Shown here: piece after piece, positions 1-6,000 of the stretch
How the letters are laid out: every line of letters begins with the position of its first letter
Numbering within the stretch: the first letter of the stretch is position 1
Assembly (NCBI RefSeq): GCF_036507355.1
Contig: NZ_AP027877.1
DNA: 64,000 bases
Reading direction: 5' to 3' (one strand)
Source of the DNA: Escherichia coli
Lineage (GTDB): Bacteria; Pseudomonadota; Gammaproteobacteria; Enterobacterales; Enterobacteriaceae
Position numbers: made by a program

Positions 1-3000
1 CCGGGATTGTCGGCTTAAGCAATACCGCGTTTACACTGCGTGTTTCGTTCACCACGCTGCCACTCAAACAGTGGACGGTACGCTTTGCCCTCGACAGCCA
101 GGTGAAAAAACATTTCGACCTGGCGGGCGTTCGCGCGCCAGTGCAGACTTATCAGGTGCTGCCTGCTCCGGGCGCGACCCCGGCTGAACCGCTGCCGCCG
201 GGGGAGCCAACGCTTTAACGTTGGCGATTAACAAAACGGCGGCGCTGCTCGTCGTTCATAAAGGTCCAGGCAATAAAGCGACTCTGCTTTTGCCCCTGGG
301 CCATCTCTTTTTTAACCACCTTCACCGCGCCCACGTCCGTCAGGGCACGATACAACGGCGGTAAGTTTTCACCACGAGATACCAGTGAAGTAAACCACAG
401 CACCTGCTTCGCGAAGCCTTTGCTCTCTTCAATCATCTTTTTGATAAAGGTGACTTCACCGCCTTCACACCACAACTCCTGTTGCTGGCCGCCAAAGTTC
501 AGTGCATCGTCTTTGTTCAGCCCCAGGTTACGGCGTTTACGCTCACTACCTGCCCGCGCCGCAGCGGCGGAATCGTGGAATGGCGGGTTACACAAGGTCG
601 CGTCGTATTGCTCGTTTTTATGGATGATGCCGTTAAAAATCGCCCCACTCTCTTTTTGCCGACGCAGACGAATGGCGCGATTAAGCCCTGGATTAGTACT
701 GATGATCGCCTGCGCGCTGCTTAACGCCTGGCTGCTGGTTTCACTACCGGTAAAACGCCAGCCATATTCATGTACGCCAATCAGCGGATAAATACAGTTC
801 GCACCAACGCCGATATCCAGAATGCTGGCATTAGCTGGAATTGTTCCGCTTGCTTCTGCCAGTAAATCGGCAAGGTGATGAATATAATCCGCCCGGCCCG
901 GTACTGGCGGACAGAGAAAACCGTCCGGGATATCCCAGTTCGCTACGGCGTAAAAATGGGCCAGCAACGCCTTATTGAGCGCCTTCACCGCCAGCGGATT
1001 GGCAAAGTCTACGCTTTGCTCCCCGGCGGGTGTAAGCGTGAGGAATTGCTTGAGTTCAGGATTGACCTGACAAAGCGTGGCGAGATCGTAGCGGCTGTGA
1101 TGACGGTTGCGCGGATGCAACCCCGGTTTCTGGGCGGACATAGCATTCTCCTTTAAGCAGCGGCGTAAGATACCCGCATAACGCGACAGGGTAAATATCT
1201 GGCTGCGTTTATCATTTCTAAACACCTTCACATGGCTATGGTTTATGGCAATTCATCATAAAAATCAGCATTATGCATGTCATTGATTTATCTTATTTTG
1301 TAAAAATATATCGTTCAAAAAACAAGCACATCTCTGTCAATTTTTTGCGTCATTTTCATCGCGCAGGCGACCTACACTTATCAGGCACTACCCGTTGTAT
1401 TTATGAGGATGTCATTATGAAAAAGTGCCTCACACTACTGATTGCCACCGTCCTGAGCGGAATCTCTCTCACGGCTTATGCCGCGCAACCGATGAGTAAC
1501 CTGGACAGCGGTCAGCTACGGCCCGCCGGTACCGTTTCGGCAACTGGCGCATCAAACCTAAGCGATCTGGAGGATAAACTGGCAGAAAAAGCGCGCGAAC
1601 AAGGCGCGAAAGGTTATGTCATTAATTCCGCAGGCGGAAATGACCAGATGTTCGGTACTGCAACCATCTACAAATAACCCCACCAACGTAACTGCATTCG
1701 CCTCTGGATGCAGTTTTCGTCTGTTTTGTAATCAAAAAACATCAAATATGAACGCAATGTAAATAAATGTATTTCTTTTTCGCACAATGGGTGATAGAAA
1801 ATCGCGCCAAGTGATAATGCTTATCAAAATTATTATCACTTGCACGAGCACTATCACGAGATTAACAGTGGCATCGCATCCGCAGAGAGGCTTTCTCGTG
1901 GCAGTGAAAATTTCAACATATAAGAAAAAGTCACCTGCAAAATGGAAAACAATCGCAATTTCCCTGCCAGACAATTTCATTCGCTCACGTTCTTTGCCGG
2001 TCTTTGTATTGGCATCACGCCTGTGGCTCAGGCACTCGCCGCCGAAGGGCAAACTAACGCGGATGACACGCTGGTTGTCGAAGCATCAACGCCTTCGCTT
2101 TATGCGCCACAACAATCTGCAGATCCGAAATTCTCGCGTCCGGTAGCGGATACTACCCGCACGATGACGGTGATTTCTGAACAAGTGATTAAAGATCAGG
2201 GCGCAACCAACCTTACCGACGCACTCAAAAACGTCCCCGGCGTGGGTGCGTTTTTTGCGGGTGAGAACGGTAACTCCACCACTGGCGACGCCATTTATAT
2301 GCGCGGTGCTGATACATCTAACAGTATTTATATTGATGGCATTCGCGATATCGGCAGCGTCTCGCGCGACACCTTCAATACTGAGCAGGTCGAAGTGATT
2401 AAAGGGCCTTCCGGCACCGACTACGGGCGCAGCGCGCCGACGGGCTCGATCAATATGATCAGCAAGCAGCCGCGCAATGATTCTGGCATTGACGCCTCCG
2501 CCAGTATTGGCAGCGCCTGGTTCCGCCGCGGCACGCTGGACGTCAATCAGGTCATTGGTGATACCACTGCGGTGCGCCTGAATGTGATGGGCGAAAAAAC
2601 GCACGATGCCGGACGCGACAAAGTCAAAAATGAGCGTTACGGCGTCGCCCCTTCTGTCGCTTTTGGCCTTGGTACAGCGAATCGTTTGTATCTTAATTAT
2701 CTGCATGTCACCCAGCACAACACGCCAGACGGTGGCATTCCGACCATCGGTTTGCCGGGCTATTCTGCCCCATCTGCGGGAACGGCGGCCCTGAATCATT
2801 CCGGAAAAGTTGATACGCATAACTTTTACGGCACGGATTCCGATTACGACGATTCGACCACCGACACCGCTACCATGCGTTTTGAGCACGACATCAACGA
2901 TAACACCACCATTCGCAATACTACCCGTTGGTCGCGCGTGAAGCAGGATTACCTGATGACGGCGATTATGGGCGGGGCGTCGAATATTACCCAGCCCACC

Positions 3001-6000
3001 AGCGATGTGAATAGCTGGACCTGGTCACGCACGGCGAATACTAAAGATGTGAGTAATAAAATTCTCACCAACCAGACCAACCTGACCTCGACGTTCTATA
3101 CCGCTTCTATCGGTCATGATGTCAGTACCGGCGTGGAATTTACCCGTGAAACGCAGACTAACTACGGCGTTAATCCGGTGACGTTACCTGCGGTAAATAT
3201 TTATCATCCTGACAGCAGCATTCATCCCGGCGGCCTGACGCGCAACGGCGCAAACGCCAATGGTCAGACGGATACCTTCGCAATTTACGCCTTCGATACG
3301 CTGCAAATCACCCGTGATTTTGAGCTGAACGGCGGGATCCGTCTGGATAATTATCATACTGAATATGACAGTGCCACCGCCTGCGGCGGCAGCGGACGCG
3401 GTGCCATCACCTGCCCAGCTGGTGTGGCAAAAGGTTCTCCGGTCACCACCGTCGACACCGCCAAGTCGGGCAATCTGGTGAACTGGAAAGCCGGGGCGCT
3501 GTATCACCTGACGGAAAACGGCAATGTCTATATTAACTATGCCGTTTCCCAGCAGCCTCCGGGCGGCAACAACTTCGCCCTTGCGCAGTCTGGCAGCGGT
3601 AACAGTGCCAACCGCACCGATTTTAAACCGCAAAAAGCCAACACCAGCGAGATTGGCACCAAATGGCAGGTTCTGGATAAACGCCTGTTGCTCACCGCCG
3701 CGCTGTTCCGTACTGATATCGAAAATGAAGTTGAGCAAAATGATGACGGGACTTACTCGCAATACGGTAAGAAACGCGTCGAAGGCTATGAGATATCCGT
3801 GGCAGGGAATATCACTCCCGCGTGGCAGGTGATTGGTGGCTATACCCAGCAAAAAGCAACCATCAAAAACGGCAAAGATGTTGCCCAGGATGGTTCCTCA
3901 TCGCTGCCGTATACCCCGGAGCACGCCTTCACCTTATGGAGCCAATATCAGGCAACCGATGATATCTCTGTTGGCGCGGGCGCACGCTATATCGGCAGTA
4001 TGCATAAAGGTTCAGACGGCGCGGTGGGAACGCCAGCGTTTACCGAAGGTTACTGGGTCGCCGATGCCAAACTGGGGTATCGGGTTAATCGCAATCTCGA
4101 CTTCCAGCTCAACGTCTACAACCTGTTTGATACCGATTACGTCGCCTCAATCAATAAGAGCGGCTACCGTTATCACTCGGGCGAGCCAAGAACCTTCTTG
4201 CTCACAGCCAATATGCATTTCTGATTCAGATGTGGGGCGCAGGCCCCACTTTTTGGAGAACTTGTATGATGTACCACATTCCCGGCGTGTTATCGCCACA
4301 GGACGTCGCCCGTTTTCGCGAACAACTGGAACAAGCCGAATGGGTGGATGGACGCGTCACCACCGGCGCACAAGGTGCGCTAGTTAAGAACAATCAACAG
4401 GTAGACACCCGCAGCGCGTTATACGCCGCACTGCAAAATGAGGTGCTGAACGCGGTTAACCAACATGCATTGTTCTTTGCCGCTGCCTTGCCGCGTACCC
4501 TTTCCACACCGCTGTTTAATCGTTATCAGAACAATGAAACCTATGGTTTTCATGTGGATGGCGCAGTACGCAGCCATCCACAAAACGGCTGGATGCGCAC
4601 TGACCTTTCTGCCACGCTGTTTTTAAGCGATCCACAAAGCTACGACGGCGGCGAACTGGTCGTTAATGACACCTTCGGGCAACATCGGGTAAAACTCCCG
4701 GCAGGCGATCTGGTGTTGTATCCCTCCAGCAGCCTGCATTGCGTGACACCCGTAACCCGCGGTGTACGAGTGGCATCATTTATGTGGATCCAGTCGATGA
4801 TCCGCGATGATAAAAAGCGCGCCATGCTGTTTGAACTGGACAAAAATATTCAGTCGCTGAAAAGCCGCTATGGTGAAAGTGAAGAGATCCTGTCGCTGCT
4901 CAATCTTTATCATAATCTGCTGCGGGAATGGTCGGAGATCTGACGCTTGAACTGCCCAGGTTCGTCCCTATATTAGCTACACTTAACTGTACAAGCATTG
5001 ATATGGGGAGGACGATATGGCATCCGGTTGGGCTAACGATGACGCCGTCAACGAACAGATCAACAGTACAATTGAAGATGCGATTGCCCGCGCTCGGGGT
5101 GAAATTCCGCGTGGCGAAAGCCTGTATGAATGTGAAGAGTGCGGCGCACCTATCCCGCAGGCCCGTCGGGAAGCCATACCTGGCGTGCGCTTATGCATTC
5201 ATTGTCAGCAGGAGAAAGATTTACAAAAACCAGCTTATACAGGATATAATCGCAGAGGCTCGAAAGACAGCCAGTTACGTTAACTACAACTGGCGGGATG
5301 TATAGCGAGTATAATTTGTATTTTTCGTGGCATTCCGTGCCTTTAACGCTGCCGTGACTGCCACGCGATATAAAACGGGTCCATAAGTACAACAAATAAA
5401 TGGTTTATCAGTATGTTAGATATCAATCAATTTATTTGAACAAGGCGGTCAATTCTCTTCGATTTTATCTCTCGTAAAAAAACGTGATACTCATCACATC
5501 GACGAAACAACGTCACTTAAACAAAAAATCACCTGCGAGAGATTAATTATGAAAACTATCAATACTGTTGTTGCTGCTATGGCTCTTTCAACTCTGTCAT
5601 TTGGCGTGTTTGCCGCGGAACCGGTAACGGCATCCCAGGCACAGAACATGAATAAAATCGGCGTGGTTTCTGCCGATGGCGCATCCACCCTCGATGCACT
5701 GGAAGCGAAACTGGCTGAGAAAGCGGCGGCAGCCGGTGCTAGTGGATACAGCATCACTTCCGCCACCAACAACAATAAATTAAGCGGTACTGCGGTAATT
5801 TATAAGTAATTCGTAGGACGGATAAGGCGTTTACGCCGCATCCGGCAACAGATGCCTGATGCGACGCTACCGCGTCTTATCAGGCCTACAAAATCCGAAC
5901 CGTTGGACGGATCAGGCGTTTACGCTACGTCCAGCACAAGTATTTCCCTGTCTGTTTGCCGACAGACGCATATGCTCTAACCCTCATTGATCCTATGTTA

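Follow-up and report, generated by a model that had tools for sequence, protein, structure and literature searches.

The segment analysed here comprises the genes mcbA, fiu, ybiX, ybiI and ybiJ at the beginning of a 64-kb stretch of Escherichia coli DNA (64,000 nucleotides of contig NZ_AP027877.1, assembly GCF_036507355.1; hereafter the window), in which two paralogous genes of the DUF1471 family, mcbA and ybiJ, flank the iron-uptake genes fiu and ybiX together with ybiI. Very probably, this segment consists of four adjacent, co-directional and separately controlled units, namely mcbA, fiu-ybiX, ybiI and ybiJ with the small RNA (sRNA) ZbiJ of its 3' untranslated region (3'UTR), and does not represent one system. 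These four units are present or absent independently of each other across genomes, with ybiJ alone being universal. A preliminary description of this DNA had regarded the bracketing of the iron module by the two paralogues as notable, which is not upheld in view of their separate regulation, their one-sided co-occurrence and the absence of the iron module between them in Enterobacter cloacae. The bracket is better explained as a by-product of gene-order history, because the paralogues are old, sometimes only ybiI lies between them, and Salmonella and Enterobacter cloacae lack fiu-ybiX. The useful outcome is hence a negative one, as gene order at this locus should not be taken to connect DUF1471 proteins functionally with iron uptake. 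The genes themselves, the Fur control of fiu-ybiX(-ybiI), the inputs of McbR and YhaJ, and ZbiJ are all covered by earlier publications and by the annotation of K-12.

The five genes are located as follows:

1417-1677, plus strand: mcbA (ybiM), 86-amino-acid (aa) secreted DUF1471 protein, McbA in the RefSeq annotation
1942-4224, plus strand: fiu, TonB-dependent catecholate siderophore receptor (Pfam Plug and barrel; NCBIfam Fiu equivalog, 1501 bits)
4266-4943, plus strand: ybiX, PKHD-type Fe(II)/2-oxoglutarate hydroxylase, PiuC-like (Pfam and NCBIfam)
5017-5283, plus strand: ybiI, DksA/TraR-type C4 zinc-finger protein (Pfam and NCBIfam)
5549-5809, plus strand: ybiJ, 86-aa secreted DUF1471 protein

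Comparison with the list of open reading frames (ORFs), alignments, Pfam and NCBIfam revealed that the gene calls and coordinates of the preliminary description were correct to the base, and its placement of two paralogues on either side of fiu-ybiX-ybiI stands. Its designation of the arrangement as symmetric does not, since all five genes are transcribed from the plus strand and no mirror symmetry results. The segment is part of the known core backbone of E. coli, as the preliminary description had stated: its DNA is 97.96% identical to that of K-12 MG1655, and of 5426 complete E. coli genomes searched with a 4.8-kb query, 5416 contain it under precisely the gene names used here. The same query found a median of 11 places per genome because of the repetitive extragenic palindromic (REP) units that follow ybiJ.

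Control elements of the four proposed units and the response to fur deletion

The elements on which the division into units is based, as far as the promoters and terminators are concerned, are:

1316-1347, plus strand: inverted repeat CAAAAAA-N18-TTTTTTG before mcbA (alignment of 12 mcbA upstream regions)
1372-1380, plus strand: sigma-S-like -10 core CTACACTTA, 37 nt before the mcbA start codon (pattern scan)
1690-1729, plus strand: mcbA terminator, a 10-bp hairpin followed by UUUUCGUCUGUUUU (-15.9 kcal/mol, z = -3.6)
1807-1843, no strand: Fur-box array of phased GATAAT-type hexamers, overlapping the -10 element of the fiu promoter at 1813-1818
4232-4254, plus strand: GC-rich hairpin with U5 between fiu and ybiX (-19.3 kcal/mol, z = -3.9)
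4976-4986, plus strand: full sigma-S -10 consensus GCTACACTTAA, the promoter of ybiI itself (pattern scan)
5427-5439, plus strand: box for the LysR-type regulator YhaJ, TCA-N7-TGA, in the ybiJ promoter (mapped from PMC5031710), conserved across genera
5483-5498, no strand: strong CRP site CGTGATACTCATCACA within the ybiJ promoter (given for ybiJ in PMC12871828)

The first unit would be mcbA, repressed by McbR, unresponsive to Fur, and equipped with a conserved promoter region and a terminator of its own. Among the 12 aligned upstream regions the -10 core is nearly invariant across genera, consistent with a role in sigma-S-dependent transcription, and the inverted repeat, kept in most genera that have mcbA, is a possible operator. 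The conserved promoter region of mcbA contains no Fur box, and the terminator fold was not matched by any of 200 shuffled sequences. Repression of mcbA by McbR (YncC) was described by Zhang 2008, as cited in PMC4092069, and an effect of McbA on colanic acid and biofilm is attributed to the same study by papers citing it.

In the second unit, the presence of a Fur box ahead of fiu, as claimed earlier, was borne out, although in a diverged form. Using a strict search of the window with the 19-bp Fur consensus and at most three mismatches, the fiu site was missed and a site before gpmA alone was found. Fur sites were therefore finally scored by a full mismatch scan of the window against this consensus, by which the best match before fiu reaches 15/19 at 1813-1831, is the second-best of the window and belongs to in-phase overlapping matches starting at 1807, 1813, 1819 and 1825. 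The corresponding element TGATAATGCTTATCAnAATnATTATCA hardly varies among 16 representative loci from about eight genera, and a Fur peak obtained by chromatin immunoprecipitation with exonuclease treatment (ChIP-exo) has been assigned to fiu-ybiX(-ybiI) (PMC10164565). No site with six or fewer mismatches precedes mcbA, ybiI or ybiJ, save for a 13/19 match inside the end of ybiX, and a Fur box before ybiI or ybiJ was found in none of E. coli, Salmonella and Enterobacter. The best Fur-box match of the window is the one just upstream of gpmA (16/19, TATAATGAGAATTATTATC, 63122-63146), a gene for which a Fur ChIP-exo peak is likewise on record (PMC10164565).

Within this unit, the hairpin following fiu can be read as a partial terminator or attenuator, and in cells lacking fur the expression value of ybiX amounts to about 20% of that of fiu (table in PMC10164565). 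Loci of beta-, alpha- and epsilon-proteobacteria likewise have a TonB-dependent receptor gene immediately ahead of the ybiX homologue. fiu-ybiX would represent an ancient pairing of a receptor with a 2-oxoglutarate oxygenase, repressed through the Fur-box array that covers its promoter. The PiuA-PiuC pair of Pseudomonas is presumably equivalent to fiu-ybiX. PiuA-PiuC-type pairs (Pseudomonas; Caulobacter, PMC12004943) resemble it in having a receptor gene next to a PKHD/2-oxoglutarate oxygenase gene, but lack DUF1471 neighbours. In E. coli, the fiu-ybiX pair is iron-regulated.

The third unit, ybiI, would be served by its own sigma-S-type promoter together with read-through from the fiu promoter. 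Its sigma-S element coincides with a peak of the RpoS holoenzyme in the ybiX-ybiI spacer, obtained by genomic systematic evolution of ligands by exponential enrichment (SELEX; PMC5493296), and is kept in Salmonella, where ybiI directly follows rlmF. A sigma-S-type -10 (CTACACTTA) is found about 40 nt before both ybiI and mcbA, with the full consensus GCTACACTTAA at the ybiI copy. When the sequence following ybiI was folded and compared with shuffled sequences, no significant structure was obtained (z = -0.44), and there is no intrinsic terminator.

The fourth unit would consist of ybiJ and its 3'UTR sRNA ZbiJ under a YhaJ/CRP promoter, responding to acid and to hydroquinone or dinitrotoluene. 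About 130 bp before ybiJ are conserved across genera, including the YhaJ box and the CRP site, the latter being invariant in the 16 representative loci. YhaJ directly binds and activates ybiJ, and promoter mutagenesis addressed positions -120 and -112/-111 (PMC5031710). Expression of ybiJ moves together with that of the YhaJ target yhaK, and ybiJ has been counted among the most acid-induced genes, with a pH-specific expression.

Published expression data on fur deletion mutants follow this division. In MG1655, log2 fold changes of 5.47 for fiu, 5.21 for ybiX, 3.04 for ybiI, 1.24 for ybiJ and 0.40 for mcbA (p = 0.31) are reported; in W3110, fiu, ybiX, ybiI and ybiJ change by 10.0, 7.1, 5.3 and 3.1, and in strain W by 8.3, 5.7, 4.5 and 1.2 (p = 0.09 for ybiJ), with mcbA not listed in either; the neighbouring genes rlmF and hcxB exhibit little or no change (absolute log2 fold change <=0.75) (supplement of PMC10164565). 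The Fur-1 iModulon includes fiu, ybiX and ybiI and excludes mcbA and ybiJ. Co-regulation of the two paralogues, on which the significance of the bracket depended, fails accordingly: mcbA is unchanged upon fur deletion and ybiJ is increased, and their regulators differ (McbR versus YhaJ/CRP). We infer that the gradient fiu > ybiX > ybiI > ybiJ is caused by read-through, with the Fur-controlled fiu promoter giving rise to a progressively attenuated transcript that would weakly reach ybiJ and leave mcbA outside, and with ybiI and ybiJ probably driven mainly by their own promoters. A small residue of this read-through would reach ybiJ because no intrinsic terminator follows ybiI. The sole surviving link of the iron module to a DUF1471 gene is a weak polar one, from the fiu promoter to ybiJ, and mcbA has none. 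Such a stepwise fall of Fur derepression along four co-directional genes would provide a clean example of how leaky polar read-through blurs the boundary of a regulon.

Gene content across genomes and the mcbA/ybiJ pair

For gene content, 65 loci from species-representative genomes were collected with YbiX as the anchor, and their genes were identified by means of reference proteins and an iteratively built hidden Markov model (HMM) of DUF1471; the paralogues were counted in the 37 Enterobacteriaceae species loci that are complete on both sides. ybiJ was found in all 37, together with mcbA in 29 and alone in eight, and no locus contained mcbA alone, so that the co-occurrence of the two genes is one-sided. 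The eight loci without mcbA belong to Klebsiella, Kluyvera, Pseudocitrobacter and one further genus, and a tblastn search of them for remnants of mcbA matched ybiJ only. The mcbA slot between rlmF and fiu is conserved, ybiI is absent in Kluyvera, and hcxB is absent in most genera. Tatumella, Shimwellia and a Serratia species carry fiu-ybiX in another context with no DUF1471 gene within 9 kb, and an HMM scan of more than 20 fetched fiu-ybiX-like loci from outside the enterobacteria found no DUF1471 ORF, such ORFs being confined, among all loci fetched, to those of Enterobacteriaceae.

Two further gene orders, reached via YbiJ, are informative. In Salmonella the order is rlmF-ybiI-ybiJ-ybiB, with neither mcbA nor fiu-ybiX at the locus, and the lack of mcbA is consistent with PMC4092069. 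In Enterobacter cloacae it is rlmF-mcbA-ybiI-ybiJ-ybiB, again without fiu-ybiX, and the Enterobacter paralogues lie only about 680 bp apart with ybiI alone between them. From these two orders it follows that ybiI stays with ybiJ and not with the iron cassette; it has its own promoter there. fiu-ybiX lies between the paralogue slots in Escherichia, Citrobacter, Klebsiella and Kluyvera. Fiu (81-90% identity) is about as conserved as its neighbours (RlmF, 75-86%), which argues for vertical descent, and the absences in Salmonella and Enterobacter would then be losses; alternatively, fiu-ybiX may have been inserted.

The paralogy of mcbA and ybiJ and the C-terminal pattern ascribed to both were confirmed. 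McbA and YbiJ, with 86 aa each, are 47% identical in a gapless alignment over their full length (E = 7e-16), and both contain the pattern LE.KLAEKA...GA.GY.I.SA......GTA.IYK. PF07338 (YdgH/BhsA/McbA-like, that is DUF1471; gathering cut-off 27 bits) matches McbA with 69.8 bits (E = 2e-19) and YbiJ with 64.8 bits (E = 7e-18), and each scores well above the NCBIfam cut-off of 110 bits for its own model (McbA, NF040473, 174.5 bits; YbiJ, NF007611, 173.1 bits). By inspection, both begin with a hydrophobic Sec signal peptide, ending AYA|AQ in McbA and VFA|AE in YbiJ, followed by the single C-terminal domain. The solved DUF1471 structures 2noc and 2ma4 match them weakly, and both proteins are identical to their K-12 counterparts. 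In their signal peptide and single alpha+beta domain of about 55 aa, they differ in nothing from the DUF1471 family (PF07338; BhsA/McbA/YhcN, small periplasmic stress proteins of Enterobacteriaceae), of which E. coli possesses some ten paralogues, with several lying in physical clusters.

A bootstrapped neighbour-joining tree, computed with numpy distances on about 86 aligned columns, places the proteins of the McbA slot in one clade (92.5% bootstrap) and those of the YbiJ slot in another (86.5%), and both genes hence predate the split of these genera. The McbA clade is the longer-branched, with 46-74% identity to the E. coli protein as compared to 70-85% for YbiJ. A recent duplication was considered and rejected, as a DNA repeat search of the flanks recovered only a 25-nt match of 72% at the C-terminal coding ends. 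The two genes would rather be old paralogues of a family that expands by local duplication. Such an origin of the pair is plausible but unproven, and is made likely by the clustering of the K-12 DUF1471 genes well beyond chance (four pairs within 8.5 kb, P = 5e-5 by simulation).

Adjacent DUF1471 pairs have been noted elsewhere (PMC4092069). In yjfN-bsmA, and in yhcN with a ycfR-like gene of Salmonella, paralogues likewise lie a few hundred bases to a few kb apart; mcbA and ybiJ differ from these pairs in having unrelated genes in between (ybiI always, fiu-ybiX in some genera), in their 47% identity and in their different regulators. A second tandem DUF1471 gene directly after yhcN was observed in Salmonella, Enterobacter and Raoultella (loci L078, L080 and L081, about 1567-1841), and a conserved 3'UTR (TAAACCCTCGTCGTC..., hairpin and terminator) follows the last gene of these yhcN pairs. 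At the comR-bhsA locus, the gene beside comR encodes a TonB-dependent receptor in Klebsiella pneumoniae (L074, 1-373) and a siderophore-interacting-type FAD (flavin adenine dinucleotide)-binding protein in Buttiauxella (L075, 1-591). A DUF1471 gene is thus found close to iron-uptake genes for a second time, which may be a coincidence.

Points against separate units and the alternative readings

Several observations weigh against the division into four separate units with an old, locally duplicated pair of paralogues. ybiJ is significantly increased upon fur deletion, 2.4-fold in MG1655 and 8.5-fold in W3110 (PMC10164565), and no terminator lies between ybiI and ybiJ; therefore, the downstream paralogue cannot be called wholly independent of the iron module. 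The order of all five genes is kept in 29 of the 37 species loci, from about seven genera, and is more stable than an accidental neighbourhood need be. In the tree, grouping of McbA with YbiJ or with BhsA obtains 18-22% support per option (18.5% bootstrap for McbA with YbiJ, on about 86 columns), and the NCBIfam cross-scores of McbA and YbiJ are higher to BhsA than to each other. Furthermore, the DUF1471 domain has an RcsF-like fold and has been proposed to act on outer-membrane barrel proteins, so that a physical link to Fiu, itself a barrel protein, may exist.

The first of these points is accommodated if fiu-ybiX-ybiI-ybiJ-ZbiJ is a leaky polar unit, by which iron starvation modestly raises YbiJ and ZbiJ. 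This reading deserves serious consideration, even if the odds are somewhat against it. It agrees with the monotonic gradient in all three fur deletion strains, with the missing terminator after ybiI and with chimeras between fepA and the ybiJ-ybiC spacer, which were recovered by RNA interaction by ligation and sequencing (RIL-seq) mostly under iron starvation (PMC11979758). The rise of ybiJ may, however, be an indirect stress effect of fur deletion, and it is not significant in strain W. Pairing of ZbiJ with the fepA or fiu leaders was tried and discarded, since its complementarity to them is not better than that of shuffled sequences (p = 0.40 and 0.35, respectively).

The unsettled branching order of McbA, YbiJ and BhsA, and the HMM cross-scores favouring BhsA, would also be expected if the paralogues were no local duplicate pair and had arrived at the locus independently, their proximity being due to chance. 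A single DUF1471 pair within 4.2 kb occurs in about 6% of simulated random placements, and the flanks have no similarity at the DNA level. We nevertheless consider independent arrival unlikely in view of the strong clustering of the K-12 family and of the mere 680 bp between the Enterobacter copies; by identity, YbiJ is also the best E. coli match of McbA (47-50%, versus 41% for BhsA).

It is far less probable still that the two DUF1471 proteins act in the periplasm as accessory factors to Fiu, or to catecholate uptake in general, with their genes kept adjacent by joint function. The gene order conserved in 29 of 37 species loci, the RcsF-like fold with the published hypothesis of interaction with outer-membrane proteins, and the mild increase of ybiJ upon fur deletion would suit such a role. 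Against it, Salmonella keeps ybiJ, and Enterobacter cloacae both mcbA and ybiJ, without fiu-ybiX at the locus, eight species keep fiu-ybiX-ybiJ without mcbA, the receptor-ybiX pairs of the outgroup and of distant proteobacteria have no DUF1471 gene within 9 kb, mcbA is unresponsive to Fur, and the regulators of the two genes differ. Finally, that all five genes form one iron-responsive transcription unit, as co-directional genes with short spacers, a derepression extending to ybiJ and the lack of a terminator after ybiI might suggest, can be practically dismissed, because mcbA lies upstream of the Fur-controlled promoter, has its own terminator and is unchanged upon fur deletion, ybiI and ybiJ have their own conserved promoters, a hairpin with U5 follows fiu, and neither DUF1471 gene belongs to the Fur iModulons.

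The ybiJ 3'UTR, ZbiJ and BhsB

Returning to the fourth of the separately controlled units, the region downstream of ybiJ contains:

5812-5936, no strand: two REP units (Rfam naRNA4 match at 5816-5886)
5912-5971, minus strand: ybiE, a small ORF antisense to the 5' end of ZbiJ and overlapping the REP/ZbiJ junction (mapped RefSeq annotation)
5943-6039, plus strand: ZbiJ (asYbiE) sRNA; seed CTCTAACCCTCATTGATCC, 5974-5992; terminator, 6010-6039 (mapped K-12 annotation)

ZbiJ is an Hfq-associated sRNA that represses translation of rpoS at the ribosome-binding site. Its fold is highly significant (z = -5.25), and an Rfam scan of the region returned only the REP-derived naRNA4 match, with no Rfam family for ZbiJ itself. 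Insertion of the REP units between the ybiJ stop codon and ZbiJ is confined to Escherichia, where it increases the distance of the sRNA from the gene from about 30-60 to 134 nt. The core of ZbiJ, GCTCCAACCCTCATTGA...TACCCTTG, together with the terminator was located 32-61 nt after ybiJ in Citrobacter, Leclercia, Silvania, Pseudocitrobacter and Kluyvera; the core also follows ybiJ in Salmonella, and a one-base variant, CCACCCCTCATTGA, is present in Enterobacter.

BhsB, the 3'UTR sRNA of the paralogue bhsA, shares TAACCCTCATT with ZbiJ at a similar distance upstream of the terminator. The comparison covered the window (5943-6039, plus strand), the K-12 locus L067 (19304-19403) and loci L007-L052, L073, L076, L083 and L084. 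In either 3'UTR the motif is kept in several of the further genera, for bhsA in Salmonella and Leclercia, while the ybiJ and bhsA 3'UTRs of Klebsiella share a different variant. Perfect complementarity to the ompC 5'UTR extends over 16 nt in BhsB and 11 nt in ZbiJ, values reached by 0 and 1.1% of shuffled sequences, respectively, and the former fits the BhsB-ompC chimeras reported from RIL-seq. bhsA-BhsB and ybiJ-ZbiJ are thus alike in combining a DUF1471 gene with an Hfq-associated sRNA in its 3'UTR; the present locus differs in that mcbA lacks such an element, no counterpart being found after mcbA in any of 29 loci, and in that ZbiJ of Escherichia is set off from ybiJ by the two REP units. 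As to yhcN, its 3'UTR was rejected as a third member of the seed family, since only AACCCTC is kept across genera and the complementarity to ompC is not significant, which leaves a weak hint.

Both ZbiJ and BhsB are described in PMC8175672, which does not mention the paralogy, and the novelty of their shared seed is uncertain. It is conceivable, though doubtful, that ybiJ with ZbiJ and bhsA with BhsB represent paralogous modules of a gene and an sRNA, having in common a seed, AACCCUCAUU, that is directed against ribosome-binding sites and is complementary to the ompC leader, and that ybiJ-ZbiJ receives some Fur-dependent input. If the seed is shared by descent, duplication of the DUF1471 genes would have included a 3'UTR regulator of porin and sigma-S synthesis, and ybiJ and bhsA, with the same conserved seed in their 3'UTR sRNAs, would exemplify the rare situation that an sRNA family accompanies the family of its host genes. 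Leakage of the fiu promoter into ybiJ, if real, would let iron starvation feed ZbiJ and in this way connect catecholate uptake to outer-membrane remodelling.

Elsewhere in the window, a molybdenum-cofactor riboswitch was detected at 29976-30120 on the minus strand (103 bits to Rfam RF01055); it presumably represents the moaA leader already known.

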